A DNA stretch of 59,730 nucleotides from an uncultured Candidatus Bathyarchaeia archaeon (lineage in GTDB: Archaea; Thermoproteota; Bathyarchaeia; Bathyarchaeales; Bathyarchaeaceae): positions 1 through 59,730 of the forward strand of contig CAYFZT010000001.1 in NCBI GenBank assembly GCA_964347555.1, written 5' to 3'. Below are positions 10,817 through 59,730 of this stretch, one piece after another. The notes beneath the pieces are model-generated. The model saw nothing but the letters and a program-made list of their open reading frames with translations. It was not told where the DNA came from and made no database searches. The position numbers were made by a program, and so were the translations under genes. Every line of letters starts with the position of its first letter. The stretch's first letter is position 1.

Positions 10817-11725
10817 CTAAGGTTGAAAAAGGCTTCTGAGGAAGATTTTTCCTTTTCCAAGCGTTCCACTATAGTTTGTTGCAGTTATCTTTGACACTCC
10901 ATGAACCTGTGTGGCTTTTTCTACACCGATTTTTAGTGCTTTGGTAACATCTTCTAGCCTCAGCCCACTCACTATAACTTCGTAAACGCATTTCACATCC
11001 TCGGGGATCTTGCTTTCCTTGTTTGATGCTAGACATGGACAGTATGCATCGTTAGTGGTTGCTATGGCATCTTTGTACTTTTTTCCTCCAACCTTGGTTC
11101 CAGAAGCCGCAAACTTTCCAACAACATAAGGAATAGTCTTTATGCCTTCGACAGCTTGTTCAGCGGCTTCTAACGCTGCCTCGTCAGACTCTGCTAGGAT
11201 GAGGAACATGCCGCCAGCTACGCCTTTAGCGATTCCAAAAGTTTTTTCTACGTAAAACCATCCGTCCATTCTAGGTATTTTAAACACTTTCCTTCCAAAG
11301 GCTTCGGTTTCTTCTTCGAATCCATCTCCAAAGGTTTGTATGGTTGTACCTTTTGCGTCCACGAAGTCTTCAGCCATTTCCCTCGGCAGAAAATCAAAAA
11401 CGTTAGTTTTAGGGTAGGGTATTACTCCCTTCCTTATTCTAACTATCAGCCATTGCTTCAGACGCTCAAATCTTCTGTCAATAACCTGAATTATGAAACC
11501 CGGTCTTCCATCAGGAGTCTCCTCCGGTTTGGCTTCACCCTCTATTGAGGCTTCTGAAGGGGGAATTGTAGCCGATCTGCCTAAACCCTTAGTCTCCAAG
11601 GCTGATTCTAAAGCCCATTTTTTGTTCACAGATGTTACCAATATCCTAGCTATATGCACTGTAAAAGTTTCACAGAATGTATCTTCGACTGGAACGCCGT
11701 TAACCTTGAATTCTGCCATGGTCAT
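10817..11725 (-). CDS. ftr: Formylmethanofuran--tetrahydromethanopterin N-formyltransferase (canonical Ftr)
   Basis: VNGVPVEDTFCETF...ARILVTS, PEETPDGRPG, GVAGGMFLILAES, TNDAYCP, VKCVYEVIVSGL and ATNYSGTLGKGKIFL closely follow my recollection of characterised Ftr sequences. Confidence 0.85.
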   Translation of the reverse strand: MTMAEFKVNGVPVEDTFCETFTVHIARILVTSVNKKWALESALETKGLGRSATIPPSEASIEGEAKPEETPDGRPGFIIQVIDRRFERLKQWLIVRIRKGVIPYPKTNVFDFLPREMAEDFVDAKGTTIQTFGDGFEEETEAFGRKVFKIPRMDGWFYVEKTFGIAKGVAGGMFLILAESDEAALEAAEQAVEGIKTIPYVVGKFAASGTKVGGKKYKDAIATTNDAYCPCLASNKESKIPEDVKCVYEVIVSGLRLEDVTKALKIGVEKATQVHGVSKITATNYSGTLGKGKIFLRSLFQP

Positions 11726-32263: not shown

Positions 32264-32264
32264 C

Positions 32265-32360: not shown

Positions 32361-32521
32361 ATTGATCCGTTTTCCTTTTGCGACTCCAACTTGTCGTGTA
32401 ACTCTTAAAGTTTCCTCTTTCTAGCCCTCTTAACTTTTTCGGACCTTCAACTTAAAATGTTAACGTGGCGCTCTCTAAAATCAAACTACGAAGAAAGGGT
32501 GGAAAGGAAGAATCATATAGA

Positions 32522-32770: not shown

Positions 32771-32921
32771 TTGAAAACTTCTCCATGTATTAAAGAGGAA
32801 GAGTATGAGATATAGCGTTGATTACGATTCCATATATATATTCGAGACAAGACATATGCAATCGAGATAGCCTGTTCTAACGAAGAAACCAAAGAAGATT
32901 TCAGCTTGGGAAATAAATTTT

Positions 32922-33260: not shown

Positions 33261-33426
33261 AGAAGTACGACTCCAAAGTTATTTGGCAATCTTGATCTTT
33301 TGAGGTTTTCTAAATTTTTGATCTTAACATTCACTTTCGGTGCACTCTCTCTGGTACATTAGTTGATGTCTCATCGACTTCTTTAAATCTTAACGTATTT
33401 GAAAGTTCCTCTAGGAGAGAACCGTT

Positions 33427-33576
33427 ATGAAAAGTGTAGCTGAACACTGCAAGAACCCATGGAACGGAAAATGCACCAGTACCGAAATTCAGCTTTACAT
33501 CTACTATAGAAATAGACAGCTACCAATCTGTCGAAGATGCTGGAGCCAAATCGCCGAAAAGAACACGGAATGGTGA
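33427..33576 (+). CDS. Possible 49-aa zinc-binding micro-protein
   Basis: My own reading gives MKSVAEHCKNPWNGKCTSTEIQLYIYYRNRQLPICRRCWSQIAEKNTEW, with an HC..(7)..C / C..C arrangement. Confidence 0.3.
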   Translation: MKSVAEHCKNPWNGKCTSTEIQLYIYYRNRQLPICRRCWSQIAEKNTEW

Positions 33577-33703
33577 AAACATCCCGTTTGTTCCAGCGAA
33601 CATAATTAGAATATATTGACCTGCAAGTTTCTCACATGGTTTTTATAGTAGTTTGTCATGGTGTAGTGGGAAACCAGTCATCCACATTGAGGAGTCAGCA
33701 TCC

Positions 33704-44440: not shown

Positions 44441-46939
44441 TTGAAAAGGCGGATACTCTTTCCCTTCTCAGCCATCGTAGGCTTAGACAAGCTTAAGCTA
44501 GCCGTTTTAATAAACGCAATTAACCCCAAAATAGGCGGAGTGTTAATTCGGGGTCCAAAAGGTTCAGGCAAAACAACAATTGTACGCGCTTTAGCTGACA
44601 TCTTACCCGAACTTGCTGTTGTCAAAGACTGCCCTTTCAAATGTAGCCCCAACGACCCTTCAAACATGTGCCCCACCTGTAGCGAACGTTACCATAAGGG
44701 CAAAAATCTGCCCACTGAAAAGCGAAAGATGACGGTTGTTAACTTGCCTTTAGGTGCTACAGAAGACCGAGTTGTAGGCAGCCTAGATGTGGAAAAGGCT
44801 ATCAAATTAGGAATTGAAGCCTTAGAGCCAGGCATCTTAGCAGAGGCTAACCAAAACATTTTGTATGTCGACGAAATCAACTTACTGCCCGATCATATCG
44901 CTGATGACTTGCTAGACGCAGCTGCAACTGGCTGGAATGTTGTAGAACGCGAAGGAATATCTGTCAGCCACCCTTCCAGATTTATCTTCATCGGAACCAT
45001 GAATCCAGAAGAAGGAGAACTTCGACCCCAACTTCTAGACCGTTTCCCTCTCTCTGTGAGTGTGGGAAGAATAAATTCGATTAAAGAAAGAATGGAGGTA
45101 GTGAAAAGAAATCTCGAATTTGAAAGGAACCCTGAGAGTTTCTTAAAAATATACGCTCCTACTCAAAAGGAGCTAGAAAGCAAAATTCTCCAAGCCAGAA
45201 ATATTCTGTCGAAAGTGGAGATAGCGGAGAAGCTGCTTGAAGCGATATGCAAGGCTTGTTTAGATCTCAAAGTTGACGGTATGAGACCCGACATTGTCCT
45301 CAGCAAAACAGCGCAGACACTGGCAGCGTTTGAGGATAGAACATCGGTCTCTCTAAATGATGTTCTAGTAGCCTCTGAACTTGCTCTGAGCCATAGGACA
45401 AGAGAGGGAGGATTCTTAGAGCCAGCTACAAAAGATGAAATTAAAAAGGTCTTCATGGCAGCTATCAAAGAGGTGCAATACATACCTGCCGAAGCAATAC
45501 AAAAAGTCGAAGAACAGAAGGAAAAGGCAAAAGGCAAAGAGTCTCCGAGATGGGTTAAGGCTGTCTTCAAAGAGGTCGGAGATGCAAGCGAAAAAGAGGA
45601 AGAGCAATTCAGAAAATTACTTTACAAACGCCGCATATGGAGGCTCCTTAATAGACTCCAATTCACACTTAACACTCACATATTTGGACTTACAAAGAGA
45701 CTGAAACGCGCGATTGAGGAAGCGCCCATTGTAGACAGCGTCGTCAAGGGAAGAACCAAAGCTAAAGGGTATAAGGGAGAAAAAATTCCAGAAAAGAAAG
45801 AACCCAAGCAATTTTCCTTCACAACAGAACAGCGCGATGAGACTTCTGAAGAGCCGAAGCTTGGTATAGCAAGAATACCTGAAGAGAAGATGAAAGGAAT
45901 TCCAACAGTTAGCTCCGCGGTTAAATCTTCAGATATGATTACAGGTATCTCCATATTCACTAAGATTAAGAAAACCGCTCTCGCTCCGTTTAAATTTTCT
46001 TTTGAAGTGAAGGCTTCAACCAAAAAAAAGATTAGCAGTCAAGCTGGCAAGAGAGCTGAAACCATAACGACACTGCATCGTGGACGACCCCGCGGCTGGA
46101 GTTTTCCCAAAGGTAAACCCAGAGACATACATCTTCCAGCCACCATCAGAGCAGCAGCATTAAGGCAGAAATACCGGAAAAAGCCTCTAGAAACCGCGCT
46201 TAAGATAAGTGTTAAGGATGTGCGAGAGAAACTACGTCTATACAAGGCACCGATGACTCTAGTTTTTGTTATAGACCTAAGCGGCTCAATGATGCTGAAT
46301 ATTGAATCCGTAAAGAATGCTTTGCTGCAACTTCACAGAGACGCCTATCGCTATAGAGACAGAGCAGGCATAGTAGCCCTAAAAGACACAGGCGCAGTCG
46401 TTGTTCAACATCCAACAACAAATCTAAGAGTTGTAGCAAACAAGTTGATAGGACTAAAAATCAGCGGCTTTACACCTTTAGCTGCTGGAATGCTCAAGGC
46501 TTCAGAAGTCTTGAAAGAGGCAAAACGAAGAAACAGATCGACAATACCTGTCATGGTCATAATAACCGATGGCAGCGCAAATGTACCCTTACTGAGAAGT
46601 CTAGAAACAAGTGAAATACGCAGCTTTGATGAAATCGGCATCATCACCCGAGAGTTCGAAGAATTAGCTGTAAAAGACGTAATCTCGGTTTCAAAAATGA
46701 TTCAGAAAGAGGGAGTTTACACTGTAGTTGTGAACACAAATCCCAACTTTTATGGCAGAGAAACCTACGGGTTTTCCGTAACCCAGCAGATAGCCACAAT
46801 CACTAAAGGCAGTCTACATGTGGTTGGAAGACTTGCGAGTAAGGATGAACTCACCGAAAGAATCTTTGAAAAGATAGCTGAAGACCAGAGATTGATAGCA
46901 TACAAGATACGAAATCCCCAGCTTCCCACAAGAGTCTAG
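44441..46939 (+). CDS. ChlI-like AAA+ ATPase fused to a ChlD-like vWA domain (Mg-chelatase I/D-type fusion)
   Basis: [40 protein letters not shown] (Walker A), LYVDEINLL (Walker B), RPQLLDRF. Then a K/E-rich linker of about 250 aa, a GRPRGW segment, and a vWA domain with MIDAS DLSGSM...TPL...TDG. Confidence 0.8.
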
Positions 46940-46999: not shown

Positions 47000-47539
47000 G
47001 TGATTATAATGACTAAACAAAAGATTGTTATTTGGATGGGCTCATCCAGCGATATTCCCTTTGCACACCGCATTGAAGACTTTGTTAAAGAAGAAAGATT
47101 TTCCGTGAAATGTGAATACCGCATCTCTTCAGCGCACAAAACTCCAGAAAAGCTGCTGAAGGAACTGAAAGTTTACGAGCAATCTGGCGACAATATTGTC
47201 TATGTTACTGTTGCTGGCTTGTCCGATGCTCTTTCTGGAGTCGTCGCTGGTAATTCCAATTATCCAGTTATTGCTTGTTCTCCAGATGCTGAAAAACACG
47301 GGTGGTCAAAGGTTTTCTCTTCTGTAATGACCCCGAAAGGCGTAACAGTCTCTTATATAGTAGAACCAGAAAACGCTGCTTTAATGGCTGTAAAAATTCT
47401 TGCTCTGTCAAATCCTTCGCTTCGCAAGGAAATCGAAAAGTTCATGCAAAAAATGAGAAAGACTGTTGAAAATGCAGATGAAGAATTGAGGAAAAAAGAG
47501 GTTTATGAGCTCCACAGAGAACACTTTGAGGCAGAATAA
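47000..47539 (+). CDS. purE: PurE (AIR carboxylase / N5-CAIR mutase family)
   Basis: MGSSSD, SAHKTP and AGLSDALSGVVAG motifs. The start is GTG 47000 or ATG 47009. Confidence 0.85.
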   Translation: MIIMTKQKIVIWMGSSSDIPFAHRIEDFVKEERFSVKCEYRISSAHKTPEKLLKELKVYEQSGDNIVYVTVAGLSDALSGVVAGNSNYPVIACSPDAEKHGWSKVFSSVMTPKGVTVSYIVEPENAALMAVKILALSNPSLRKEIEKFMQKMRKTVENADEELRKKEVYELHREHFEAE

Positions 47540-48372
47540 TGCACTGCGAGATTATTTTGGAAACAAATCTTCCCTATGCGTTATTTAAGAGAGGGAAAGT
47601 ACGAGATGTCTACGACCTGAAAGACAGACTTCTAATCGTCTCAACCGACAGAATTTCAGCCTTTGATGTAGTGTTGCCAAACGGTGTTCCCTGCAAAGGC
47701 GAAGCCCTCAACAGACTTTCTAACTACTGGTTTAAGGAAACAGAAGATATCGTCCAAAATCACATACTCGAAGTTATGGATCCAAGAATGGTTCTTGTAA
47801 AGAAAGCTAACCCTATAGACATCGAATTTGTAGTGAGAGGCTACCTATACGGCTCCTTATGGAAGAAATACGCTAATGGAAAAGCATCAGATATTCCATC
47901 GGGCTTAAGAGAGGCTGAGCGCCTTCCAAATCCTATTCTTACACCTACCACTAAGGCTGAAGTAGGCCATGATGTTGACATTGAAAGAAAAGAGGTTATC
48001 AAAAAAGTTGGAAAAACTGTAGCTGAAGAGATTGACGAAGTTTGCCTAAAAATCTACGAAAAAGCTTCTAGAAAAGCGGAAGCCAACGGAATAATCATTG
48101 CTGACACAAAACTAGAGTTCGGCTTCTGCGATGACGAGTTAATTCTCATTGATGAACTGCTTACGCCTGATTCGTCCCGTTTTTGGCCTGTTGAAAAGTA
48201 TAAAATCGGTGGAAGTCAGTTCAGTTTTGACAAACAATACGTCAGAGATTACTTAGAAAGTATAAAATGGAACAAGAAGCCGCCAGCGCCAAACCTGCCC
48301 GAACGCATTATTCTTGAAACATCTAAAAAATACGTTGAAGCTTATGAGCGGTTAACTGGCAGAAAGTTTTGA
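47539..48372 (+). CDS. purC: SAICAR synthetase
   Basis: GKVRDVYDL, STDRISAFD, KGEALNRLSNYWF, and LIDELLTPDSSRFW. Confidence 0.9.
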   Translation: MHCEIILETNLPYALFKRGKVRDVYDLKDRLLIVSTDRISAFDVVLPNGVPCKGEALNRLSNYWFKETEDIVQNHILEVMDPRMVLVKKANPIDIEFVVRGYLYGSLWKKYANGKASDIPSGLREAERLPNPILTPTTKAEVGHDVDIERKEVIKKVGKTVAEEIDEVCLKIYEKASRKAEANGIIIADTKLEFGFCDDELILIDELLTPDSSRFWPVEKYKIGGSQFSFDKQYVRDYLESIKWNKKPPAPNLPERIILETSKKYVEAYERLTGRKF

Positions 48373-48446: not shown

Positions 48447-49880
48447 ATGGGTATTGCGAGAGAAGAGATGCAGAAAATAGTTAAGTCGTTTAAAGAGCCG
48501 ATAGGTCTCAATTTAGGCTCTCATTCTGCTCTTGATGCTTGGCAAGGACAAAGAAACTATGGGTTAAGAAGCATAATCTATACAACACGTGCAAGAGCCC
48601 GTATCTACCTGCAGAATCCTATGGTTGGAAAACCAGGAGAAACCGTAGAAGAGATGCCGAGGCAAGTTAAAGAAGAAATAATCGTGGTTAACGACCCGAA
48701 GGATATCAAGAAAGATGGGAAATGGAGAAGCGCCATACTGGTTCTCGACGAATATCGAGATATAGTAAAGTATGTTGACGATCTAGTCAATCTTGAATGC
48801 CTACAAATTACAAACAGAGCCTTTTCCGTCTACGTAGGTGGAGATGAATACTGCAGTGTAATAGAAAACCGTTTTGCAGTTCCCATTATGGGCTCAAGAA
48901 GAGCGTTGAAAATCGAGAACAGAGGAGAGATTGAAAAAGATTACTACTGGTTTGCCGAAAAAGCTGGAATCCCCTTCCCAAAATCTTACAAGTATGAGAT
49001 TCACTCTAGCGGAATCAGATTCAAAGAGCCAATAGACGAACCCATGCTTCTCAAAGCAGAGCACGCCCACCGCGCCTTCGAAAGAGAATTCATTTTTGCT
49101 GCTGATTCCAGCGACCTTGAAGAGAAGGTGCAACGAGAGATGGAAGCTGGAACCCTCACAAGAGAAAGCCTAGAATACGCTCGAGTGGAACAGATCGTTT
49201 TAGGTCCTCATGCTAACTTCAACTTCTTCTTCTCTCCCCTTGACGCCAAGGAAGAATGGGGAGACGTAGACGATTGGTATGTAAAACTGTACAACGTAAG
49301 CCTTGAAGAAGCCCGAACCTGCTTAGCAAACCAGTTCCTGTCAATCGATGAACGAAGAGAAACCATACTAGACGGCGTAAAAAGAATGCCCATAGACATC
49401 CAACAAAAAATCAAGAAGGTTCCCTCCTTCGAGGTTTCCGCTCATCTGATGATGAGCCTACGCGAATCCTTGCTAAAAGATGTACATCGTTATGCAGATG
49501 CCTTCCTCTTAGCGCTGAAGAAGTACGCGTCTCCAGGGATTATTGGCGCTTGGTGTTTGCAGACATTGATTACTTGGGATAGAATCTCCAAGTATGAGTT
49601 GCAGCCTAAAGCCAAGTTTGACTTCACTGGCGGAGCCGACCCGAAAACTGCCATGGACTATGGCTTGTACGATGTGCCAGAAGGACAAGAACCCTACATG
49701 CACATTCCAGTTACGCAGGACTTGGCCTTACGACATGGCGGTGGAACCAACGTACACATGGGTGTGGGTTCGCAATATGCCAACGCTAAGTATCAGAAGC
49801 CCATGAGCATGGGAGACAGAATCGCCTTGGAAATCAGACGTGCCTGGAAAAGGAAGCAGCTTGAAGAGATCGTAACATAA
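48447..49880 (+). CDS. purP: PurP-like formate-dependent FAICAR synthetase (ATP-grasp), unusually long
   Basis: LGSHSALD N-terminus and GGGTNVHMGVGSQYA...PMSMGDRIALEIRRA...LEEIVT C-terminus match my recollection of archaeal PurP. At 477 aa it is about 100 residues longer than my remembered length for PurP. Confidence 0.7.
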   Translation: MGIAREEMQKIVKSFKEPIGLNLGSHSALDAWQGQRNYGLRSIIYTTRARARIYLQNPMVGKPGETVEEMPRQVKEEIIVVNDPKDIKKDGKWRSAILVLDEYRDIVKYVDDLVNLECLQITNRAFSVYVGGDEYCSVIENRFAVPIMGSRRALKIENRGEIEKDYYWFAEKAGIPFPKSYKYEIHSSGIRFKEPIDEPMLLKAEHAHRAFEREFIFAADSSDLEEKVQREMEAGTLTRESLEYARVEQIVLGPHANFNFFFSPLDAKEEWGDVDDWYVKLYNVSLEEARTCLANQFLSIDERRETILDGVKRMPIDIQQKIKKVPSFEVSAHLMMSLRESLLKDVHRYADAFLLALKKYASPGIIGAWCLQTLITWDRISKYELQPKAKFDFTGGADPKTAMDYGLYDVPEGQEPYMHIPVTQDLALRHGGGTNVHMGVGSQYANAKYQKPMSMGDRIALEIRRAWKRKQLEEIVT

Positions 49881-49904: not shown

Positions 49905-50990
49905 GTGGAATTGGTGCCAGAGAGTTTCACCTACGCCGAAGCTGGCGTGGACAGAAAACTAAGAGCAAGATCAAAGGTTGCACTTAAAGCTCTGAAACAA
50001 ACTTACAGGCACAGTCGCTACGGAAAAGTGATCCATCTACCCTACGGCAACATCTTTCCAGTAAACGACAGATACTTAGACCTAGTCATTGAAGGCGTCG
50101 GAACCAAGGTTCTCATAGCCCAGTTGGCAAACAAATACGACACAATAGGAATAGACGGCATAGCCTTAGCGGTAAATGACGTCATACGATCAGGAGCTAG
50201 ACCCATAGCCATCGCGGACAACATACATGCCCATGTTTCTGACCCAACGCTTGTGGCTGAGTGGATGAAGGGAATAGTAAAAGGCGCAGAGGAAGCCGGT
50301 TGCGTAGTGCCAAGTGGAGAAATCGGCGACGTAGCAGAGATAATAAAAGGGCTTTCCGCAGGCAAAGGTTTCGACATGGTCTTTGCATGTGTTGGAGAAT
50401 TAGACAAAAGCGATATAATTTTTGGAAACAACATCAAGCCAGAAGATGTCGTTATTGGTTTGAGAAGTTCAGGCATCCACAGTAATGGAATAACCCTTGC
50501 AAGAAAAATTTTATTTAAGCAGTGGGGCGGCAAATACGAGCCTTTTGATGTTCCTGAAGAATTCGATAGAGAACTTGTCTACGAAGTTCTGGAGCCAATG
50601 AAAATCTATGTAAAACCCTTTCTGGATGCCGCTGAAAAGTATGAGATTAAAGGGGCAGTGCACATCACTGGAGACGCATACCTGAAATTCGACAAACTAA
50701 TGCAATTTTCCAAAGGAATAGGCTTCGAATTCGACAACTTCAAGCCTCAACCAATATTCAATCTAATTCAAAAAGTTGCTTCTCAAGTCAAGGCTCCAAT
50801 CACAGATGAAGAAATGTTGAAAACCTTCAACTTTGGATGGGGCTTCGCAGTCATTGCGAGTAAAGACGACCAAGACGCGGTTATAGACAGTTTTGAAAAG
50901 AATAAGCTGCAAGCTGAAAAGATAGGAAAAGCAACAAGTGCAAAAAGAATTGTCGCTTTATACAACGGAAAGAAATTTTTGCTCAGATGA
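49905..50990 (+). CDS. purM: AIR synthetase
   Basis: YAEAGVD, GVGTKVLIAQ, and the DNI/GEI and SSGIHSNG segments. Confidence 0.85.
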   Translation: MELVPESFTYAEAGVDRKLRARSKVALKALKQTYRHSRYGKVIHLPYGNIFPVNDRYLDLVIEGVGTKVLIAQLANKYDTIGIDGIALAVNDVIRSGARPIAIADNIHAHVSDPTLVAEWMKGIVKGAEEAGCVVPSGEIGDVAEIIKGLSAGKGFDMVFACVGELDKSDIIFGNNIKPEDVVIGLRSSGIHSNGITLARKILFKQWGGKYEPFDVPEEFDRELVYEVLEPMKIYVKPFLDAAEKYEIKGAVHITGDAYLKFDKLMQFSKGIGFEFDNFKPQPIFNLIQKVASQVKAPITDEEMLKTFNFGWGFAVIASKDDQDAVIDSFEKNKLQAEKIGKATSAKRIVALYNGKKFLLR

Positions 50991-51069: not shown

Positions 51070-52563
51070 ATGTACGACTGCCTAAAAGAAGAGTGCGGAG
51101 TCTTCGGCGCACAAGATTACAGAAAAGGCTCTATTTTTCCCTATATCTACTGGGGTCTCCGCGCTCAGAATCATCGAGGCCACCAGTCCCATGGAATCAT
51201 CACATTTAACGGAGACTTCCACAAATACAAGGCTTTAGACTTGGTTCCAAAGATAAAAAAGGAAGATATTCAAAATTGGCTTAGTCGACTTCCAGGATCC
51301 GATGGCATAGGAAACATCCGCTACACAACTTCAGGCGGAACCGATGAACAATCCTTGATTAAAGGCACTCAACCATATCTGATAGAGACAAAAGAAGCTA
51401 GATTAGCTGTGTCCTTCAACGGTAACATAGTTAATCACTTCAAACTGCACAGCCAATTGAAGGAAACTTTTCCTCAGTCTTGCTATGAATGTGATGTAGA
51501 ACTGATCGGAAGAAAGCTAGTTACCGAACTAGCTAGAACGAAAGACTTACCCTCATCTGTGAAGAGCTGCATGAAGGAGATTGAAGGAGCCTTCTCAGTT
51601 GTAGGTTTAGCAAAAAACGGTGAGATGTTCGCTTTTAAAGATCCTTATGGAATCAAACCTCTTTGTTGTGGTCACAGTCCAGAGGGCACAATTCGCGCTG
51701 TTTCCTCCGAAACTGTGGGTCTCAACATCAATGCCCTTGACTATGACTTCGAGCTGGAGCCTGGAGAATTCGTAATGGCTTCGAAAGACAATCTCATTCG
51801 GGAGCAGCTTGTTCCGTGCAGAAGAAGGGCGCTTTGTGCCTTCGAGTTTGCATATTTCGCCAGACCAGATTCGAGGCTTGGAAACAGATTTGTTTATGAG
51901 ACGAGGGAAGAGTTTGGAAGAAACTTAGCCAAAGAGTACAGTGAGCACGTTAGAGACTCTGATGTTATTATATCTCTGCCGGAAACGGGCGACGATGTTG
52001 CCTTAGGTCTCCACGAAGCAACTGGTCTACGTTGGGAACGAGCAGTTCGAAGACACCGCTACGTAACTGAACGCGCCTTCATTCTTCTAGCTGAAGAACG
52101 TTATGCCACAATTGACAGAAAACTCAATGTCCTTGGAAATAAGATCAAGGGTAAGAAAGTTGCAGTTACTGAAGACAGCATCGTTAGAGGGGACACAACA
52201 AGAGTTGTCGTGGAAAAGCTGCGAAGGATGGGAGCAAAAAAGGTTTATCTGTTTATCACTTTCCCAAGAATAATTGGTCCATGTTTCTATGGCATTGACA
52301 TGGCAACCTACGGCGAGCTGATCGGTTCTCGACATCAACCAGAAGAGATCGCAAACATAATAGGCGCCGATGCTGTGAATTACCAGTCGATTAGCGGTTT
52401 CGTCAAGTCTATTGGCTTGGGAAAAAACGAATTGTGTTTAGCCTGTGTCACAGGAGAGTATCCGACACCACTTGCGCAGAAGATGGCAGATGAAATGCGA
52501 GAAAAATTTGAAAAAGGCTACAAAGAAACTGGAAGAATATATGAAGTTTCGAGTGTACTCTGA
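51070..52563 (+). CDS. purF: Amidophosphoribosyltransferase
   Basis: Ntn Cys in ECGVFGA, RGHQSHGI, PRPP loop VAVTEDSIVRGDT, and C-terminal Cys residues (CLACVTGEYP). Confidence 0.9.
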   Translation: MYDCLKEECGVFGAQDYRKGSIFPYIYWGLRAQNHRGHQSHGIITFNGDFHKYKALDLVPKIKKEDIQNWLSRLPGSDGIGNIRYTTSGGTDEQSLIKGTQPYLIETKEARLAVSFNGNIVNHFKLHSQLKETFPQSCYECDVELIGRKLVTELARTKDLPSSVKSCMKEIEGAFSVVGLAKNGEMFAFKDPYGIKPLCCGHSPEGTIRAVSSETVGLNINALDYDFELEPGEFVMASKDNLIREQLVPCRRRALCAFEFAYFARPDSRLGNRFVYETREEFGRNLAKEYSEHVRDSDVIISLPETGDDVALGLHEATGLRWERAVRRHRYVTERAFILLAEERYATIDRKLNVLGNKIKGKKVAVTEDSIVRGDTTRVVVEKLRRMGAKKVYLFITFPRIIGPCFYGIDMATYGELIGSRHQPEEIANIIGADAVNYQSISGFVKSIGLGKNELCLACVTGEYPTPLAQKMADEMREKFEKGYKETGRIYEVSSVL

Positions 52564-52658: not shown

Positions 52659-53321
52659 TTGCAAACTAAACTCCTGTATCTGTATGACAGCTATCTGAGA
52701 GAATTCGAAGCAAAAGTCCAGAATGCCAAAGAAAGGCAAGTGATTTTGGATCAAACAGCCTTTCATCCCCTCTCTGGTGGTGTAGCTCATGACATGGGAT
52801 ACCTTGCAAAGGGAAACATGAAATATAAAGTCATGAAGGTGGAGATAAACAGAGAAACAAAAGAGATAGTTCATGTACTTGAAGAAGAAGCAGCCTTTGA
52901 CCAGAGCAGTCTTGTAAAGGGAATATTAGACTGGGAAAGAAGATACAGATTGATGCGACTTCATACCGCAGCACACTTGGTAGCAGCCGTGATGTATAGA
53001 GACCATGACGCATTGATAACAGGGGGGCAAGTAGACTACAAGTATGCAAAATTGGACTTCAACCTTCCCACAACCAGCCGAGAAATATTCGAAGCTGCTG
53101 TCGAAAAAGCTAACAAAGAAGCAAACAAAAAGGTCTCCCTAAAAATATATTTTCTAACAAGAGAAGAAGCGTTGAAAATGCCGGGAATAGTAAAATTGGC
53201 TGAAAGAATGCCCCCCAAAGAAAGGGAGTTAAGGATAGTGGAGATCCCTGGCATAGACACGCAGGCCGACGGTGGACCCCATGTTAAAAACACTGGAGAG
53301 ATAAGTAGAAAACAAGGGTAA
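52659..53321 (+). CDS. alaX: AlaX-type alanyl-tRNA editing protein (AlaX-M-like), 3' end possibly frameshifted
   Basis: LYLYDSYLREFEAKV, zinc motif HTAAHLVAAV, and DGGPHVKNTGEI. TTG start. See the finding on its 3' end. Confidence 0.7.
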   Translation: MQTKLLYLYDSYLREFEAKVQNAKERQVILDQTAFHPLSGGVAHDMGYLAKGNMKYKVMKVEINRETKEIVHVLEEEAAFDQSSLVKGILDWERRYRLMRLHTAAHLVAAVMYRDHDALITGGQVDYKYAKLDFNLPTTSREIFEAAVEKANKEANKKVSLKIYFLTREEALKMPGIVKLAERMPPKERELRIVEIPGIDTQADGGPHVKNTGEISRKQG

Positions 53322-53603: not shown

Positions 53604-53818
53604 GCGTGTAGAGACTATAAGGTTTCCGCAGACTTCGCAGAAATGAGCGTTATGAAGAATTTCACTGGTAAAGGCGTAAGAAAACAGTAACCTTTCTTTA
53701 ACAGGGAAAATGCAAAAAACCTTATTAGCAAATCAAAATTAAACAAGAACTTGTTAAGAAGGTTGAGAAGAAACCAGAAAGAAGAATCTGTGGGGGTTTT
53801 GCACTGCCTGAAAGAGTA

Positions 53819-55225
53819 GGCGTCTTAGCTGTTTCCTACGGTGCAAGAGAAGCGGCGATTATAGACGCTTTCGCACGCAGTCAAGATTATCGAGTAGAAA
53901 TATACGTTGCTGACAAGCAGAGAAACCCTTTCAATCTGAAAAGAGCCAAAGCACATGTAGTTATACCCGATCTTAACATTGAACAAATCTGCAAATTTGC
54001 CCAAAGACACAAACAAAAAATCGATTTCGGCATAGTGGGTCCAGAAAAACCAATAATCGAAGGCATACGAAACTATGTAGAAAAAGAAACAGACATACCT
54101 CTAATCTGCCCTACAAAGGAATACGCCCTCGAAGCCAGCAAAGTTGCTCAAAGACTCCTTTTACAAAAAGTTGTGCCAGAGGTCAACCCTAAATTCAAAG
54201 TTTTCAATCCGAAAGATTACAGCACAATTACTGCGGTTAAACGAGAAGTCCACAAATGGCTTGACGAAATAGGCAATGCAGTAGCAGTGAAACCTGACCG
54301 TCCAGCCGCTGGAAAGGGAGTAGGGGTCTGGGGCGACCACTTCAACACCCGCCAAGAACTAGTTGACCATTTCATGTCAAACATCGAATATGGTCCTGTG
54401 ATAATAGAAGAAAAGATTGAGGGCGAAGAATCCAGCTTTCAAGCCTTTTGCGACGGAAAACATCTGGTGCCTCTGCCTGAAACTCGAGACTACAAGCGAG
54501 CCTTTGACGGAGATAAGGGTCCAAACACTGGCGGCATGGGCTCCTACAAAGACGTTGGCGATATATTGCCCTTCATGACTACAGTTGACAAGGAAAAGGA
54601 GACCGAAATTGTGAACAAGGTTTTCAGAGAGCTGAGAAAGCGAGCCTCAAGCACAGATCTGCGAGGCATTCCCTTCTACAACGCCTTCATTCATACAAGC
54701 ACAGGTTCCAAGGTTTTGGAAAATAATAGTCGACCTGGAGATCCTGAGATACAAAATCTTCTTCCAATTCTAAAAGACGATTTCGTTGATGTATGCTGCA
54801 GGATTCTTGAAGGCAATTTGACAAGAGTGAGCTTTGAGAGGAAAGCTACTGTTGTCACATACAAAGTGCCTCCTAACTACGGCGGATTTGCCAAAGTATT
54901 CCCTGAAAAAGTCAAAACTGAAGAAGTAGACAAGCCTGTTAATTTAAGCCAAGGAGAGAAGCTTGCTGAAAAGTATAGTAGTGCAATTCGAATCTATCCT
55001 GCCTCCGTGGAGCTCAGAGAAGACGGTGAGGTTTATGCTCTTGGATCGAGAACCGTCTGTGTGGTTGGTGTGGGAGACGACATCCAAGAAGCGAGGGAAA
55101 TCTCGCTGAAGGGCATTGACGCGATCACTGGGGGGGCACTTTGGAACAGAACAGACATAGCATCTAGAGAGCACTTAGAAAAAAGCATTGAACACATGAG
55201 AAATCTGAGGCCATCCAGAAGATGA
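53819..55225 (+). CDS. purD: Phosphoribosylamine--glycine ligase (GAR synthetase); 5' boundary unresolved
   Basis: ATP-grasp body (AVKPDRPAAGKGVGVW, GGMGSY, ENNSRPGDPE). The N-domain sequence GVLAVSYGAREAAIIDAF...IDFGIVGPEKP is encoded in frame upstream of the first canonical start (GTG 54035). No ATG, GTG or TTG occurs between the in-frame TAG at 53726 and 54035. Confidence 0.8.
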   Translation, partial: GVLAVSYGAREAAIIDAFARSQDYRVEIYVADKQRNPFNLKRAKAHVVIPDLNIEQICKFAQRHKQKIDFGIVGPEKPIIEGIRNYVEKETDIPLICPTKEYALEASKVAQRLLLQKVVPEVNPKFKVFNPKDYSTITAVKREVHKWLDEIGNAVAVKPDRPAAGKGVGVWGDHFNTRQELVDHFMSNIEYGPVIIEEKIEGEESSFQAFCDGKHLVPLPETRDYKRAFDGDKGPNTGGMGSYKDVGDILPFMTTVDKEKETEIVNKVFRELRKRASSTDLRGIPFYNAFIHTSTGSKVLENNSRPGDPEIQNLLPILKDDFVDVCCRILEGNLTRVSFERKATVVTYKVPPNYGGFAKVFPEKVKTEEVDKPVNLSQGEKLAEKYSSAIRIYPASVELREDGEVYALGSRTVCVVGVGDDIQEAREISLKGIDAITGGALWNRTDIASREHLEKSIEHMRNLRPSRR

Positions 55226-56316
55226 ACACAAACTCGCAGAGAATCTTCATTTCAGACTGTGAAGGGCCAATATCTAAAAACGACAATGCGTTTGAACTTG
55301 CATCCCATTTTATTCCCCATGGAGACAAGTTCTTCACGTTGATAAGCAGATACGATGACATCTTAGCCGATATCGTGAAGAAAAAAGGCTACAAGGCTGG
55401 AGACACTTTAAAGCTTATACTTCCCTTCTTGAAGGCTTACGACGCAACAAATCAAGGCATCATGGAATACTCCTCAAAGAATGTGCTTTTAGTTCCGGGA
55501 GCCAAACATCTGCTTCAATTCGTTAAAGCAGTTATGCCCTCGTTTATCGTAAGCACAAGCTATGAACAGTATATGCGTGCCCTATGTAGCTTCATAGATT
55601 TCCCCTACGAAAACGTGTTCTGCACTCGACTAGACTTGGACAGATACAAAATTGAAGAGAAAGAGAGAGACCAACTTGAACAGTTAAGAAAAGAAATTTC
55701 CGCTTTACCCATGCTTGAAATTCCGAAAAATGCAAAATCTATCCTCGACTTTCCAGTACCACAACGTGAAGCAATAGATAAGTTGGATGAAGTTTTCTGG
55801 GAAAAAATTAGCAAGATGAAAATTGGCAAAATTTTCAACGAGGTTAATCCAATTGGCGGAAATGAGAAGGCTGAAGCTGTGAAAAACATAGCTAAGAGAT
55901 TAGGGAGTAGGCTCTCTGATGTAATGTATGTTGGCGACAGCATAACTGATGTTTCAGCTTTTCAGCAGGTACGAAAAGAAGGAGGATTGACTGTTTCTTT
56001 CAATGGCAATGCTTATGCGGTTAGGGAGGCGGAAATTGCCGTACTCTCAGAAAACGCAATTGTAACCTCCGTCTTAGTAGACACTTTTAACAGGTTCGGC
56101 AGGACTGGTGTTTTTCAGCTTGTAAACGAATGGAGCCATCAAGCTCTACAAAGATGTGGAATTGACTCTACTCTGCAAAAACGCATTTTAGAGTTGTATC
56201 CCAAACAGCTTCCAAAGGTTGAGAGAATAACATTAGACAACAAGGAGCAGTTGATGAAAGAGAGCAGTGTCTTTAGAAAATCTGTGCGCGGTGAAGCCGT
56301 GGGAAAGCTGGGATAG
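55222..56316 (+). CDS. HAD-fold-like protein of unknown function (possibly EhaR-like)
   Basis: FISDCEGP (degenerate motif I) and YVGDSITDVSAF (motif IV-like). ATGA overlap with the purD stop. Confidence 0.6.
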   Translation: MNTNSQRIFISDCEGPISKNDNAFELASHFIPHGDKFFTLISRYDDILADIVKKKGYKAGDTLKLILPFLKAYDATNQGIMEYSSKNVLLVPGAKHLLQFVKAVMPSFIVSTSYEQYMRALCSFIDFPYENVFCTRLDLDRYKIEEKERDQLEQLRKEISALPMLEIPKNAKSILDFPVPQREAIDKLDEVFWEKISKMKIGKIFNEVNPIGGNEKAEAVKNIAKRLGSRLSDVMYVGDSITDVSAFQQVRKEGGLTVSFNGNAYAVREAEIAVLSENAIVTSVLVDTFNRFGRTGVFQLVNEWSHQALQRCGIDSTLQKRILELYPKQLPKVERITLDNKEQLMKESSVFRKSVRGEAVGKLG

Positions 56317-56364
56317 CAGATAACTAATTTGGTCAATAATATCTAAACTTGGTTTGGTGATGTA

Positions 56365-57261
56365 ATGGCTGAAATTGAAGACACCTATGCTGAAGCTTTT
56401 GATGGGCTCTTCTGTCGAATTTTAATCACTGCCAAAGATGAGAAACGATTGAAACGGGCTGCTTACGGCTGTACTGCCTTGCCTATGGTGGTTGTTGGCA
56501 GAACCGAAGGGGGAGTTGAAAAGTGGGTTAGCGAAACGGAAACAATTGACGGACGTTTAGGCGCTATAGTGCAGTTTTGGGGCGCAATAGATACATCTAA
56601 ACCCTTCAAGGCATCGTTGAAAAAGTTCGTCAAAGAAGTTTCCTATAGAATCCGTCAAGAGATACTGGTTGAGCCAACCACATGCGTTTTTAATGCTTTA
56701 GATTCTGAAAAAAAGTTTGATGTCATGCCCAGCATTGGGCACTGTGGAGACGGCTACGAATGGGAAGAAGAAAACTACGGACGTCGAGTTATCAACATTC
56801 CGCTTATGATGCCAGGCTTCAAAATTGAACGTTTCCTCGGCTATGACATCGGTGTTTCTGGCGGAAATCTTTGGTTAATGTGCAAGGATGAGGATTCTGC
56901 GCTTGAAGCTGGAGACAAAGCCCTCAAAGCCATACATAGTGTTGAAGGAGTAGTCACACCTTTCGACATCTGCTCAGCAGGATCAAAACCAGAAACGCAC
57001 TTTCCAGAGATAGGTCCAACAACTAATCATCCTTATTGTCCCTCATTGAAAGGTAAAATACCTGATTCAAAAGTCCCAGATGGCGTATACTCGATTCCAG
57101 AGATCGTAATCAACGGCATGTCTCTAGAAGCAGTGAAAAAGGCGATGAAAGCCGCAATTTATGCGGTTAGAGACATGGAGGGGGTCTTTAGAATTTCTGC
57201 GGGCAACTATGGTGGAAAACTGGGCAAGAATAAGATATACTTGCGAGAGCTGGTAAGATGA
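56365..57261 (+). CDS. Divergent Ftr-family paralog (formyltransferase-like)
   Basis: EDTYAEAFDGLFCRILITA, GVSGGNLWLMCKD, TNHPYCPS, IPEIVINGMSLEAV and SAGNYGGKLGKNKIYL align along the full length with the canonical Ftr at 10817..11725. The acidic PEETPDGRPG loop is replaced. Confidence 0.75.
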   Translation: MAEIEDTYAEAFDGLFCRILITAKDEKRLKRAAYGCTALPMVVVGRTEGGVEKWVSETETIDGRLGAIVQFWGAIDTSKPFKASLKKFVKEVSYRIRQEILVEPTTCVFNALDSEKKFDVMPSIGHCGDGYEWEEENYGRRVINIPLMMPGFKIERFLGYDIGVSGGNLWLMCKDEDSALEAGDKALKAIHSVEGVVTPFDICSAGSKPETHFPEIGPTTNHPYCPSLKGKIPDSKVPDGVYSIPEIVINGMSLEAVKKAMKAAIYAVRDMEGVFRISAGNYGGKLGKNKIYLRELVR

Positions 57262-58172
57262 AGTTTGACGTCTTAGGCTTTGGCGCCTTAAATGTAGACA
57301 AACTCTACAAGGTTAACAAGATCGCAAGAGAAGGTGAAGAAAGCTTTGTCACAGACTTTCATGAAGCACCAGGGGGTTCAGCAGCAAATACGATAGTTGG
57401 CTTAGCACGCTTAGGCTTAAAGACAGGCTATATTGGAAAAGTTGCTAATGATCCAGAAGGAAAACTACTGCTAAGGGATTTCAAAAAGGAAAAAGTTGTC
57501 ACAAGCGGTATACTGATCGCTCCAACTGGAAGAAGCGGTGTTGTCACTGGCTATGTCGACATTAAGGGACAAAGAGCCTTGTATGTAGACCCGGGTGAAA
57601 ACGACACTTTAGAATTTAAGGACATCAGTTTGAAATATGCAAGCAACGCCAGTTTTCTGCACCTGACATCTTTTGTCGGAGAGAAGCCTTTCAAAGCGCA
57701 AGAGAAGCTGGTTGAGAAGTTGCCTGATGTTCGGGTAAGTCTAGACCCTGGCGAAATATACGCAAGAAAGGGCTTAACCGCTTTGAAATCTCTTGTTGAG
57801 CGAAGCTACATTGTTTTTCCTAATGGAAATGAGGTTAGACTTCTCACTGGAAAAGGATTTAAAGAGGGCTCAAAAATCCTGATTCAGAAAGGTGCAGGTA
57901 TAGTTGCAGTGAAGCTAGGTGATAAGGGATGCTATGTTACTGATGGTAAAGAAAGCCATCTTGTTGAGCCTTATTCTTCAGAGGTTGTGGATACAACTGG
58001 TGCTGGCGACGCCTTTTGTGCTGGCTTTCTATATGGCTTAATTAAAGGCAAAGACCTCTACACATGCGCAAAGCTTGGAAACTTCGTGGCTTCCCGTTGC
58101 ATAGCAAAAATTGGTGCAAGAACAGGATTGCCCGAGCTTTCAGAGTTGAAAAGGCTAAAATTTCTTCGTTAA
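57258..58172 (+). CDS. PfkB-family carbohydrate/nucleoside kinase
   Basis: GFGALNVD, GGSAANT, and DTTGAGDAFCAGFLYG (anion hole/catalytic Asp). ATGA overlap with the Ftr paralog. Confidence 0.8.
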   Translation: MKFDVLGFGALNVDKLYKVNKIAREGEESFVTDFHEAPGGSAANTIVGLARLGLKTGYIGKVANDPEGKLLLRDFKKEKVVTSGILIAPTGRSGVVTGYVDIKGQRALYVDPGENDTLEFKDISLKYASNASFLHLTSFVGEKPFKAQEKLVEKLPDVRVSLDPGEIYARKGLTALKSLVERSYIVFPNGNEVRLLTGKGFKEGSKILIQKGAGIVAVKLGDKGCYVTDGKESHLVEPYSSEVVDTTGAGDAFCAGFLYGLIKGKDLYTCAKLGNFVASRCIAKIGARTGLPELSELKRLKFLR

Positions 58173-58991
58173 ATACTCTGTCATGGAGTCAATGATTAGT
58201 CTTCCATCCCCATATTTCTGAACGTACTTTCTTCTTGTCCAGTCGGGTAGTTGCCAGCCGTAATAGGCTCTTTCTGGATGGGGCATCAAGCCAAATATTG
58301 TTCCCTCTGGATTACAGATGCCTGCGATGTCGTAGAAGGCTCCGTTAGGGTTTGCTGGATACTTGCCATTTGCATACTCACCCTTTTCATTACAGTATCT
58401 GAAAACTAATTGGTCGTTTTCAATAAGCCTTCGCAAACATTTCTCCTCCTCTTCTTTTGGAAACATGAATCTGCCTTCAGCATGCGCAATTGGAATCCTT
58501 ATCATCTTGTCTCTCGGAATTTTCTGCGTAAATAAACATCTGCCCGAGTTTACATGTTTGAGATGAACCCACATGCAACGGTATCCAATAGGCTCATTCG
58601 TCGCTAAGGCTGCTTGTGAATACTTACTGCTTCCTCCATCAAATCCAGGCAGCAATCCAGCTTCAACCAGCACTTGAAAGCCATTACAAATACCCAAAAC
58701 AAGCTTTTCTTGTGCAATAAATTCCTTAAGATCTCGTTCAAGCTTGGCTAAGATTCCTTTAGCCCATATGGCGCCAGCTCGCACATAATCGCCATAGGCG
58801 AAGCCACCTGGAAAAACGAGGGCGTCATAGCTGAGAAGGCTCTTCTCCTTGATTATTTTGTTTAGATGAACGATTTCGGCTTTGACGCCTGAATCTTCGA
58901 ATGCGCTTTTGGTTTCTGCGTCACAGTTGGTTCCTCCAACCCGCATAATGCATACGTTAACGTCCTCTTTTTTCACAAGGCTAACCTCCAA
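58155..58991 (-). CDS. purQ: FGAM synthase, glutaminase subunit
   Basis: GTNCD, PGGFAYGDY, catalytic GICNGFQVL, and MPHPER. Confidence 0.85.
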   Translation of the reverse strand: MEVSLVKKEDVNVCIMRVGGTNCDAETKSAFEDSGVKAEIVHLNKIIKEKSLLSYDALVFPGGFAYGDYVRAGAIWAKGILAKLERDLKEFIAQEKLVLGICNGFQVLVEAGLLPGFDGGSSKYSQAALATNEPIGYRCMWVHLKHVNSGRCLFTQKIPRDKMIRIPIAHAEGRFMFPKEEEEKCLRRLIENDQLVFRYCNEKGEYANGKYPANPNGAFYDIAGICNPEGTIFGLMPHPERAYYGWQLPDWTRRKYVQKYGDGRLIIDSMTEYLTKKF

Positions 58992-59730
58992 AAGTGCTTT
59001 TCCAAGCGTTTCTGAGTTCTGCTAGGCTTGCATCTACAACTGGCCTGTCGTCTGTTCCATACACAAGCAAACTCTTTTCCCCCTTCACCCTACCCACAAC
59101 TGAAAAGTCAACACCTTTTAGTAAAGCTTCAAAATCTTCACGCCTTTTTTCTTGAACCTCAACCAGAAAACGACTGTTAGATTCAGAAAACAAGATGAAA
59201 TCGTTTCTTTGCATGTTTCCTGGTCTGGGAACGCTCTCCAAGTATAGGTTGATTCCGTAGTCGCCTGTGAAAGCCATCTCTGAAATTGCAGCTGCTAAGC
59301 CTCCTTCAGAAAGGTCGTGGCAAGCCTCAACACAGCCAGCATCAACAGCTTTAACTATTGACTCTATGATTTTTCTTGCTTGAGGCATTCTAACTTTGGG
59401 CACAGTATTGCCTAGAAAGCCTCTCAACTTGTAATATTCGGAGCCACCCAGCTCCGGATAGGTTGAACCAAAAATATAGATGAGGTTTCCAGCTTGTTTG
59501 ACATCCAAGGACACCGCTTTTCTCACGTCAGGAATAACTCCGACTGCTGTGATTAGAAGTGTTGGAGTAACAGGACCTAAAGGCGACTCATTGTAGAGGC
59601 TATCTTTGCCAGAGATAAAAGGGGTTCCAAAGCCTTTCGCAAATCGGTAACAGGCTTTGCATGCCCTCACTAAGGCGCTCATTCTATCCGTCTTTTCAGG
59701 GTTGCCCCAGGTGAAGTTGTCAAGCAAGGC
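58981..59730 (-). CDS. purL: FGAM synthase subunit PurL, C-terminal part (gene runs off the window)
   Basis: LDNFTWGNPEKTDRM...ACKACYRFAKGFGTPFISGKDSLYNE and HDLSEGGLAAAISEMAF. The frame is open to the window edge. Confidence 0.85.
   Translation of the reverse strand, partial: ALLDNFTWGNPEKTDRMSALVRACKACYRFAKGFGTPFISGKDSLYNESPLGPVTPTLLITAVGVIPDVRKAVSLDVKQAGNLIYIFGSTYPELGGSEYYKLRGFLGNTVPKVRMPQARKIIESIVKAVDAGCVEACHDLSEGGLAAAISEMAFTGDYGINLYLESVPRPGNMQRNDFILFSESNSRFLVEVQEKRREDFEALLKGVDFSVVGRVKGEKSLLVYGTDDRPVVDASLAELRNAWKSTFGG

Follow-up and report, generated by a model that had tools for sequence, protein, structure and literature searches.

A three-gene module in the purine biosynthesis cluster of an uncultured Candidatus Bathyarchaeia archaeon is proposed to supply the formylation of glycinamide ribonucleotide (GAR) to formylglycinamide ribonucleotide (FGAR). 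The module lies on contig CAYFZT010000001.1 of assembly GCA_964347555.1, of which the stretch analyzed here (the window) comprises positions 1 to 59,730 of the forward strand, 59,730 nucleotides (nt) in all; the names borne by close homologues agree with a placement in Bathyarchaeia. It encodes an EhaR-type protein of the HAD superfamily, an Ftr2/EhaS-type paralog of formylmethanofuran:tetrahydromethanopterin (H4MPT) formyltransferase (Ftr), and an EhaT-type kinase of the PfkB family. Three slots, occupied by an EhaT-type PfkB kinase, a formyltransferase and an EhaR-type HAD protein, recur in other archaea and in bacteria, with the formyltransferase swapped among non-homologous families; the module either forms part of purine operons or takes over a place within them, at the position of GAR formylation. 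From sequence comparison and gene context, a probability of about 0.6 is assigned to the reading that the module carries out GAR-to-FGAR formylation and that Ftr2 here draws on formyl-methanofuran or N5-formyl-H4MPT. An earlier note on this DNA had suggested that the Ftr paralog transfers a formyl group from such carriers into the purine pathway, a suggestion that the comparisons below support.

The locus ties together two puzzles, the gap in GAR formylation and the genes at the end of eha hydrogenase operons, and the proposal is testable with three small soluble proteins. The gap has been acknowledged since at least 2011 for Methanobacteriales, Methanopyrus and Archaeoglobi, and later for the ANME-1 group of anaerobic methanotrophic archaea (ANME). 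No purN or purT was found in M. kandleri, four Methanobacteriales and two Archaeoglobi, although these retain the rest of the pathway and M. thermautotrophicus is prototrophic for purines (Brown et al. 2011, PMC3261824). ANME-1 is also without an identified GAR formyltransferase (Chadwick et al. 2022, PMC9012536). The same paper reports divergent Ftr2 copies from ANME-1, ANME-2a/2b, Archaeoglobales, M. kandleri and Methanothermobacter, with Ftr1 alone characterized; the missing purN/purT and the distribution of Ftr2 stand there in separate sections, and no connection between them is drawn. In the literature searched, outside which most subscription-journal papers fell, no functional assignment of EhaR, EhaS, EhaT or Ftr2 was found, nor any paper that links the two observations.

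Results and Discussion

The Module in the Purine Cluster of Bathyarchaeia

The three open reading frames (ORFs) all lie on the forward strand, as first described, with products of 364, 298 and 304 amino acids (Table 1). The TGA stop of purD shares bases with the ATG of the HAD gene in an ATGA at 55222-55225, and a second ATGA at 57258-57261 joins the Ftr stop to the PfkB start. Between the first two genes of the module, a 48-nt spacer (56317-56364) contains the Shine-Dalgarno-like GGTGAT ahead of the Ftr ATG, while the last 18 nt of the PfkB gene (58155-58172) also belong to the convergent purQ. The tight module outlined in the earlier note, with its coordinates, both overlaps and the 48-nt gap, thus matches the sequence, and profile searches agree with the HAD, Ftr and PfkB families that it named. 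The genes purE, purC, purM, purF, purD, purQ and purL and a purP-family gene are present as it had listed them. As it had also reported for the visible cluster, no PurN or PurT was detected by Pfam or NCBIfam in nearly all window ORFs of at least 120 amino acids (the scan left out two overlapping shadow ORFs and all shorter ORFs), nor was any eha gene found among the scanned ORFs.

The arrangement was followed in a scan of genomes, one per species, with a narrower EhaR alignment as the query, the 68-sequence EhaR alignment used for motif analysis being too diverse for that purpose; of the more than 551 matches the top 80 were considered, all from Bathyarchaeia and with a HAD identity of at least 52%. 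Other phyla were covered by individual look-ups of gene context and by a single metagenome scan. In the 80 Bathyarchaeia species genomes purD stands directly upstream of ehaR at every evaluable locus (70/70), ftr2 comes next after ehaR in 66 of 72, and ehaR is followed by both ftr2 and pfkB in 63 of 72. Behind the trio, purQ-purL-purM usually follow in convergent orientation. A gene order that recurs in 63 of 72 species genomes indicates that the arrangement of the window is not due to chance. The linkage of the trio to pur genes, for which the earlier note had asked across archaeal genomes, is therefore conserved in Bathyarchaeia, and bacteria possess it independently, Ftr being replaced there by a PurN-like enzyme. 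At four of the Bathyarchaeia loci (L010, L016, L017 and L041) purF-purD-ehaR is kept and unrelated genes replace ftr2 and pfkB; in the first three, as judged by eye, a primase-like and a KaiC-like ORF occupy that place.

A further archaeal contig (L121) carries purP, purM, purE, purD, ehaR, ftr2, pfkB, purF, purL, purQ, purS and purC within 14 kb, and its ORF-by-ORF reading revealed neither purN nor purT. The module accordingly occupies the purN/purT position in the window, in L121, in the 63 Bathyarchaeia species and, in a PurN-like version, in the bacterial locus L173 described below. PurP or PurH accounts for the formylation of AICAR (aminoimidazole carboxamide ribonucleotide) in all these clusters, leaving GAR formylation alone without a gene.

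Versions of the Module with Other Formyltransferases

Among 1.8 billion representative proteins searched, 664 EhaR-family clusters were detected, some of which are fusions. In one of them (P0304) a PurN-like Formyl_trans_N domain is joined to EhaR, and in two others (P0305 and P0326) EhaR is joined to a PurT-like ATP-grasp region of about 550 amino acids. The PurT-like label is tentative, as it relies on a match of about 30 residues (E ~3e-8) within an ATP-grasp part that fits no Pfam family well, and the contigs of these ATP-grasp fusions are too short to display neighbors. Separate genes for a PfkB kinase, a PurN-like formyltransferase and EhaR form an operon in an Aerophobetes-like bacterium. 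In the metagenome scan, a PurN-like gene adjoins ehaR at 22 loci, at 17 of which the kinase is visible. In all, the gene order PfkB, Formyl_trans_N, EhaR is seen at about 20 loci. The formyltransferase slot is thus filled by Ftr2/EhaS in Bathyarchaeia and Methanobacteriales, by divergent PurN-like enzymes in several bacteria, and by PurT-like ATP-grasp domains in some fusions.

The recurrence of the module with other formyltransferases is, in our view, the new and most telling result. At L173 (GC content 59%) the order is purB-purC-purS-purQ-purL-purF-[PfkB-formyltransferase-EhaR]-purH, with gaps of 14-39 nt. Between purF and purH, the trio takes the place that belongs to purN in the classical Bacillus-type pur operon. 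At a second bacterial locus (L156) the trio lies beside purH, with purD, purL, purF and purM close by. A divergently oriented gene for a nucleoside phosphorylase of the PNP/UDP type (8788-9660, reverse strand) adjoins ehaR at this locus, a neighbor suggestive of chemistry on ribose 1-phosphate or a riboside. At L090 and about 15 further loci the three genes occur together with no other pur gene near.

In the PurN-like partners the catalytic residues, N-x-H and Asp, are still present, and their PurN score exceeds their PurU score. The GAR-phosphate loop is replaced by FSTGRD or by an acidic SLHDDD (relative to E. coli PurN), and in this they differ from PurN, which has the canonical loop. PurN and PurT share with the module the proposed net reaction and the same place in pur operons, and divergent relatives of both fill the formyltransferase slot in other versions of it. 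Unlike the module, which always comes with a kinase and a HAD enzyme, they need neither.

Ftr2 Compared with the Canonical Ftr

The Ftr-like product of the module carries both lobes of the family, PF01913 FTR (4e-42, residues 3-147) and PF02741 FTR_C (1e-54, residues 151-296). Its identity is 48-49% to Methanobrevibacter EhaS and 33-34% to the second Ftr of the window (Ftr1), to which the Ftr of the Methanobrevibacter trio is 29% identical. Against the three solved archaeal Ftr enzymes, Ftr1 scores 236-257 bits and Ftr2 only 160-178 bits. In a neighbor-joining tree Ftr2 groups with the pur-linked copies of Bathyarchaeia and Methanobrevibacter EhaS, while Ftr1 groups with 1FTR, 1M5S and 1M5H. 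Ftr2 is hence not an ortholog of the biochemically characterized Ftr1 (EC 2.3.1.101), belonging to a separate clade with lower scores. The earlier note had regarded the copy at 10817 as canonical and that at 56365 as a diverged paralog, and had asked whether the latter joins the "Ftr II" clade. Both views hold: Ftr1 retains PEETPDGRPG, TNDAYCP and VKCVYE, and the copy of the module falls in the EhaS/Ftr2 clade apart from the characterized enzymes. Among NCBIfam models, Ftr2 passes the Ftr subfamily cut-off (331 bits vs 297) and stays below that of the TIGR03119 equivalog (226 bits vs 292.6).

The catalytic glutamate (Glu245 in M. kandleri) is kept in Ftr2, where the Glu of IPEIVING aligns with that of VYEIVING, and it is invariant in both clades. 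An oxyanion-stabilizing role of this residue (Glu252 in FhcD) has been restated for FhcD (PMC6926001). Clade-specific switches occur directly beside it (V243I and Y244P) and also at F127C and S207A. The invariance of Glu245, combined with the switches next to it, suggests that Ftr2 is a functional formyltransferase whose site has been altered. More broadly, Ftr enzymes (1FTR, 2FHJ, 1M5S, 1M5H; FhcD 6S6Y) and Ftr2 have the same two Pfam domains, align over their full length with about 37-40% identity, and share Glu245 together with many invariant Gly, Pro and Asp positions. The chemistry, in which a formamide donates the formyl group, is probably common to both. They differ in context, which is the one-carbon (C1) pathway for Ftr and purine synthesis or the eha operon for Ftr2, and in the acceptor, which is H4MPT for Ftr and a proposed glycinamide ribo-compound for Ftr2. 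Pfam detects no Formyl_trans_N or ATP-grasp domain in Ftr2; in the absence of homology to PurN or PurT, the designation as a GAR formyltransferase concerns function alone.

The immediate surroundings of Ftr1 in the window are not C1-pathway genes. Downstream of it, on its strand, lie a purine phosphoribosyltransferase-like gene (10102-10704) and the gene for the KEOPS subunit Cgi121 (9536-10105).

The EhaT-Type Kinase

The kinase contains a full-length PfkB domain (PF00294, 1e-51, residues 6-293), in which GALNVD, GGSAAN and DTTGAGD can be read; DTTGAGDAF includes the catalytic Asp and the anion hole. It fits no characterized NCBIfam subfamily. Ribokinase and ribose-1-phosphate kinases are its best matches there, yet it stays far below every equivalog cut-off, including those for RbsK (TIGR02152, 156 bits vs 299.65; NF008353, 104 vs 341). 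The N-x-D, GG and DTTGAGD motifs are common to this protein and to the sugar and riboside kinases of the ribokinase/PfkB family, from which it is set apart by its nearest relatives, the kinases of other trios. It shares 42% identity with Methanobrevibacter EhaT and 38% with a bacterial trio kinase, and the archaeal and bacterial trio kinases are 38-42% identical to one another, while the closest solved PfkB structures give at most about 95 bits. These values fit orthology of the kinases of archaeal and bacterial trios.

The EhaR-Type HAD Protein

Several HAD models of Pfam match the first protein of the module (E ~1e-6); NCBIfam release 20 contains no EhaR-family model and names Ftr2 plain Ftr. 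In the Joint Genome Institute (JGI) annotation, homologues are labeled "energy-converting hydrogenase A subunit R". The catalytic motifs DCEGP, STS, K216 and GDSITD are intact. Across 68 diverse homologues the four HAD motifs (D12-x-E14-G-P, S111-T-S113, K216 and G238-D239-S-I-T-D243) are strictly or almost strictly conserved, the fully invariant columns being D12, E14, G15, P16, S111, S113, K216, G238, D239, D243 and R356, with R352 nearly so. In the cap, D21, D45 and D46 are invariant, and Y44 and Y57 are invariant in the 25 closest homologues and exceed 90% in the wider set. Motif I has Glu, not Asp, two residues past the nucleophile. The same D-x-E-G variant is known from ThrH (DLEGV), which is a phosphotransferase, and from enolase-phosphatase E1 (DIEGT).

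The AlphaFold2 model (pLDDT, the predicted local distance difference test score, of 96.8) displays the HAD Rossmannoid fold with a cap, and Foldseek assigns a probability of 1.0 to 1y8a, which ranks top, and to phosphoserine phosphatases, followed by ThrH. The phosphoserine phosphatase equivalog SerB is far from reached (TIGR00338, 21 bits vs a cut-off of 144). Relative to the phosphoserine phosphatase/ThrH enzymes of type HAD-IB, the protein is much larger (364 amino acids), with added helical inserts and a conserved C-terminal extension ending in an invariant LG. The nearest solved relative is the uncharacterized AF1437 of Archaeoglobus fulgidus (PDB 1Y8A, 2e-77), which shares the fold with a TM-score of 0.80 normalized by the query and 0.92 by the target; it is a divergent DWEGP subtype that stands alone in its genome. 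All EhaR-family proteins examined, fusions and AF1437 included, end in ...R-x-x-x-R-G-x-x-x-G-x-L-G with Gly as the last residue; in the window this tail spans residues 348-364, the pattern among homologues being ...R-K-x-V-R-G-x-x-I-G-x-L-G. A role as a carrier protein through this invariant C-terminal Gly was considered and set aside, as the fold offers no support for it. The possibility that EhaR is the missing inosine monophosphate (IMP) cyclohydrolase was likewise discarded, every phosphoryl-transfer motif being intact, and PurO is already present in Methanothermobacter.

Connection to the eha Operon

To our knowledge, no function has been assigned to the Ftr-like and ribokinase-like genes that close eha operons since 1999, the year in which these operons were reportedly described by Tersteegen and Hedderich. 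An anaplerotic role has been reported for Eha. In Methanothermobacter and Methanobrevibacter, the eha operon ends with the genes for EhaR, EhaS and EhaT, overlapping or nearly so, and all three products are homologous to the proteins of the window. At the Methanobrevibacter locus (L085), ehaA-Q, polyferredoxins included, are followed by EhaR-like, FTR/FTR_C and PfkB genes with gaps of at most 8 nt; their products are 38% (EhaR), 49% (EhaS) and 42% (EhaT) identical to those of the window, in the same order R-S-T. The window trio, unlike EhaR/S/T, stands behind purD and faces purQ/purL, away from the distal end of any eha operon. The original annotation of EhaS and EhaT was Ftr and ribokinase, respectively, and cotranscription with eha then led to their being deemed hydrogenase subunits (Kaster et al. 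2011). The trio that the earlier note had placed at the end of some methanogen eha operons is thereby confirmed by the Methanobrevibacter locus, by Kaster et al. and by the JGI name EhaR.

Proposed Function of the Module

According to the proposal, the module would introduce purine C8 by GAR-to-FGAR formylation where PurN and PurT are absent. Ftr2 would most likely take the formyl group from formyl-methanofuran or N5-formyl-H4MPT through oxyanion chemistry of the Glu245 type, and deliver it to the amine of the glycinamide made by the translationally coupled PurD, the acceptor being GAR or a close derivative. The convergently encoded PurQ and PurL would then use the formylated product. In eha-bearing methanogens, Eha would replenish the formyl-methanofuran that the module withdraws for biosynthesis.

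The part of the kinase and the HAD protein is more speculative. In the favored sub-mechanism, EhaR would remove the 5'-phosphate of GAR, or pass it on in a ThrH-like manner, the formyltransferase would formylate the glycinamide riboside, and the kinase would restore the 5'-phosphate to yield FGAR; the ATP spent would make a near-isoenergetic formamide-to-formamide transfer irreversible. The altered GAR-phosphate loop of the PurN-like enzymes, the N-x-D and GG motifs of the kinase and the cap residues of EhaR are counted in favor of a riboside. Such phosphate cycling, with formylation on a dephosphorylated intermediate, is put forward tentatively, as it is judged possible but clearly short of an even chance. 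Equally tentative is the wider notion of a third, hitherto unrecognized route to FGAR, carried out by three enzymes and widespread in anaerobic archaea and bacteria, in which the EhaR-type and EhaT-type enzymes would cycle the ribose phosphate of the glycinamide intermediate and its modified, probably dephosphorylated, form would be formylated. Its donor would be set by the slot: formyl-methanofuran or formyl-H4MPT for Ftr2, 10-formyl-folate for the PurN-like enzymes, and formate plus ATP for the ATP-grasp domains.

Several points weigh against assigning GAR formylation to the module. The reaction is a single step with no obvious need for a kinase and a phosphatase, and the favored detour costs ATP and is without precedent in purine synthesis. 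The donor and the acceptor are both read from sequence and context, and the divergent PurP-family protein of the cluster could, in principle, formylate GAR with formate. The anticorrelation with purN/purT raised by the earlier note is supported by the literature for Archaeoglobi, Methanobacteriales, Methanopyrus and ANME-1, with the exception of ANME-2a/2b, for which Ftr2 and PurN are both reported (PMC9012536); the two are thus not strictly exclusive. Six to nine Bathyarchaeia genomes have purF-purD-ehaR with no ftr2 or pfkB alongside. Divergent EhaR members also stand alone, as AF1437 of A. fulgidus and at L086, L088, L091 and L174, their context being uninformative. No Ftr or PfkB gene occurs within 10 kb of the A. 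fulgidus homologue, so that in this species the three genes do not make up one unit.

Alternative Explanations

The simplest alternative retains the net reaction: the formyltransferase would act on ordinary GAR, with the kinase and the HAD protein as loosely associated helpers, either a ribokinase or ribose-1-phosphate kinase with a sugar-phosphate phosphatase or mutase feeding ribose 5-phosphate and phosphoribosyl pyrophosphate (PRPP) to PurF, or a nucleoside/nucleotide salvage pair. No ATP-consuming detour is then required, ribokinase and ribose-1-phosphate kinases head the NCBIfam matches of the kinase, a nucleoside phosphorylase adjoins ehaR at L156, and fusions of non-consecutive purine enzymes are known, such as PurN-PurH1 in Halobacteria (Brown et al., PMC3261824). 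A supply of ribose, however, would not require the partner formyltransferase to be divergent in all three families, and the trio is kept across archaea and bacteria even where no pur gene is near (L090 and about 15 more loci). Furthermore, no PRPP synthetase gene turned up in the clusters that were searched for it, namely L121, in which each ORF was read, and L085, L090 and L173, in which the annotated genes were inspected. This explanation is considered unlikely. A change of substrate is less probable still: the module might formylate AICAR, phosphoribosylamine or glycine, or release formate in a PurU-like manner for a PurP-type ligase acting on GAR and AICAR. Such a role would suit the atypical PurP-family protein of the cluster (477 amino acids, far under the NCBIfam cut-offs), the existence of PurP-like proteins without AICAR activity, and the purU-like genes clustered with pur genes in Halobacteria (Brown et al., PMC3261824). 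Yet the bacterial trios adjoin purH, which covers AICAR, with no PurT or PurP in the visible part of those loci, and their PurN-like enzymes fit PurN better than PurU. Formate dehydrogenase mutants of Methanothermobacter require added formate (Kaster et al. 2011), which argues that EhaS supplies no free formate in amounts that matter, and formate release would likewise leave the kinase and the HAD protein unexplained.

The remaining two alternatives detach the trio from purine synthesis. Ftr2 passes the NCBIfam Ftr subfamily cut-off (331 vs 297 bits) and keeps the catalytic Glu and most motifs common to all Ftr, as expected of a second formyl-methanofuran:H4MPT isoenzyme serving C1 metabolism, for which the position among pur genes would have no specific meaning. 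This is judged very unlikely in view of the conserved location between purD and purQ/purL in 63 of 72 Bathyarchaeia species, the PurN-like enzyme in the equivalent bacterial slot, and the canonical Ftr already encoded in this genome; in ANME, moreover, Ftr2 is the less transcribed copy (PMC9012536). The least probable reading, to which hardly any weight is given, is the current one of EhaR/S/T as subunits or accessory factors of the energy-converting hydrogenase Eha. It derives from their cotranscription with ehaA-R (Kaster et al. 2011) and from the location of the trio at the end of the Methanobrevibacter eha operon. Against it stand the trio of the window, where no eha gene was found among the scanned ORFs, and that of bacteria, as well as the soluble-enzyme catalytic motifs kept in all three proteins. 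In the 80 Bathyarchaeia genomes, whose flanks were queried for pur and trio genes and not for eha, the immediate neighbors of the trio are pur genes.

Other Features of the Window

The features of the locus are collected in Table 1. As listed mechanically, from GTG 54035, purD is without GARS_N, its N-terminus being encoded upstream in the same frame; translation from 53795 displays GARS_N, GARS_A and GARS_C. The region of the conserved N-terminus (53729-54035) offers no in-frame ATG, GTG or TTG before GTG 54035, and the M-E-R-V-G start of homologues aligns with CTG CCT GAA AGA GTA (CTG 53804). A CTG start would account for this, as would a defect due to assembly or mutation. The PurP-family protein reaches 144 bits with the NCBIfam PurP models, far under their cut-offs, in a match split into two to three stretches.

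The AlaXM gene separates purF and purD in the window, while the two are adjacent in the other Bathyarchaeia genomes examined. Directly upstream of purE lies an 832-amino-acid fused Mg-chelatase I/D-like gene (putative cobaltochelatase, 44441-46939), a homologue of which occurs at the equivalent position in L038. Two regions, 32263-33653 and 28682-29409, contain no ORF of at least 120 amino acids and gave no match in the Rfam scan, which detected a tRNA in the window and nothing else. A scan for promoters and terminators of the bacterial type, which does not cover archaeal promoters, returned 7 and 3, compared with shuffled means of 8.2 and 4.9.

Table 1. Genes of the purine cluster and the module in the window, the comparison copy of Ftr, and fusion proteins found elsewhere
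Feature	Position	Strand	Basis
purE (N5-carboxyaminoimidazole ribonucleotide (N5-CAIR) mutase family)	47000..47539	+	TIGR01162 1e-36
purC (succinylaminoimidazole carboxamide ribonucleotide (SAICAR) synthase)	47539..48372	+	NF010568 348 bits, over cut-off
PurP-family ATP-grasp protein (presumed formate-dependent AICAR formyltransferase), 477 amino acids, divergent	48447..49880	+	DUF1297 2e-47, DUF1246 5e-18 (Pfam)
purM	49905..50990	+	TIGR00878 247 bits, over cut-off
purF	51070..52563	+	TIGR01134 4.6e-88
AlaXM alanyl-tRNA editing gene, between purF and purD	52659-53321		
purD (GAR synthetase), start placed at a probable CTG	53804..55225	+	TIGR00877 1e-68; GARS_N, GARS_A, GARS_C
EhaR-type HAD-superfamily protein, phosphoserine-phosphatase-like class	55222..56316	+	364 amino acids; Pfam HAD matches; homologues called EhaR
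Ftr2/EhaS-type paralog of formylmethanofuran:H4MPT formyltransferase	56365..57261	+	298 amino acids; FTR, FTR_C
EhaT-type PfkB (ribokinase-like) kinase	57258..58172	+	304 amino acids; PfkB 1e-51
purQ (formylglycinamidine ribonucleotide (FGAM) synthase, glutaminase subunit), convergent to the trio	58155..58991	-	NF002252 299.6 bits, over cut-off
purL, C-terminal part, gene exceeds window end	58981..59727	-	TIGR01736 2e-51, profile positions 474-713
Canonical Ftr (Ftr1), comparison copy outside the module	10817..11725	-	257 bits vs M. kandleri 1FTR
Fusion proteins P0304, P0305 and P0326	loci L081-L084		

Conclusions

If the proposed function is correct, the GAR formyltransferase gap would be filled in Methanobacteriales, Methanopyrus, Archaeoglobi, ANME-1 and Bathyarchaeia, and EhaR, EhaS and EhaT would be reassigned from hydrogenase subunits to purine enzymes. 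Purine C8 in these organisms would then come straight from the C1 carriers of methanogenesis or the Wood-Ljungdahl pathway, not from folate or free formate, and the anabolic hydrogenase Eha would be cotranscribed with a consumer of the formyl-methanofuran that it helps to regenerate. Thousands of genes annotated as "Ftr", "HAD hydrolase" or "sugar kinase" would be due for new names, and a textbook pathway would gain a new logic, in which a formyl transfer is flanked by an obligatory kinase and phosphatase.

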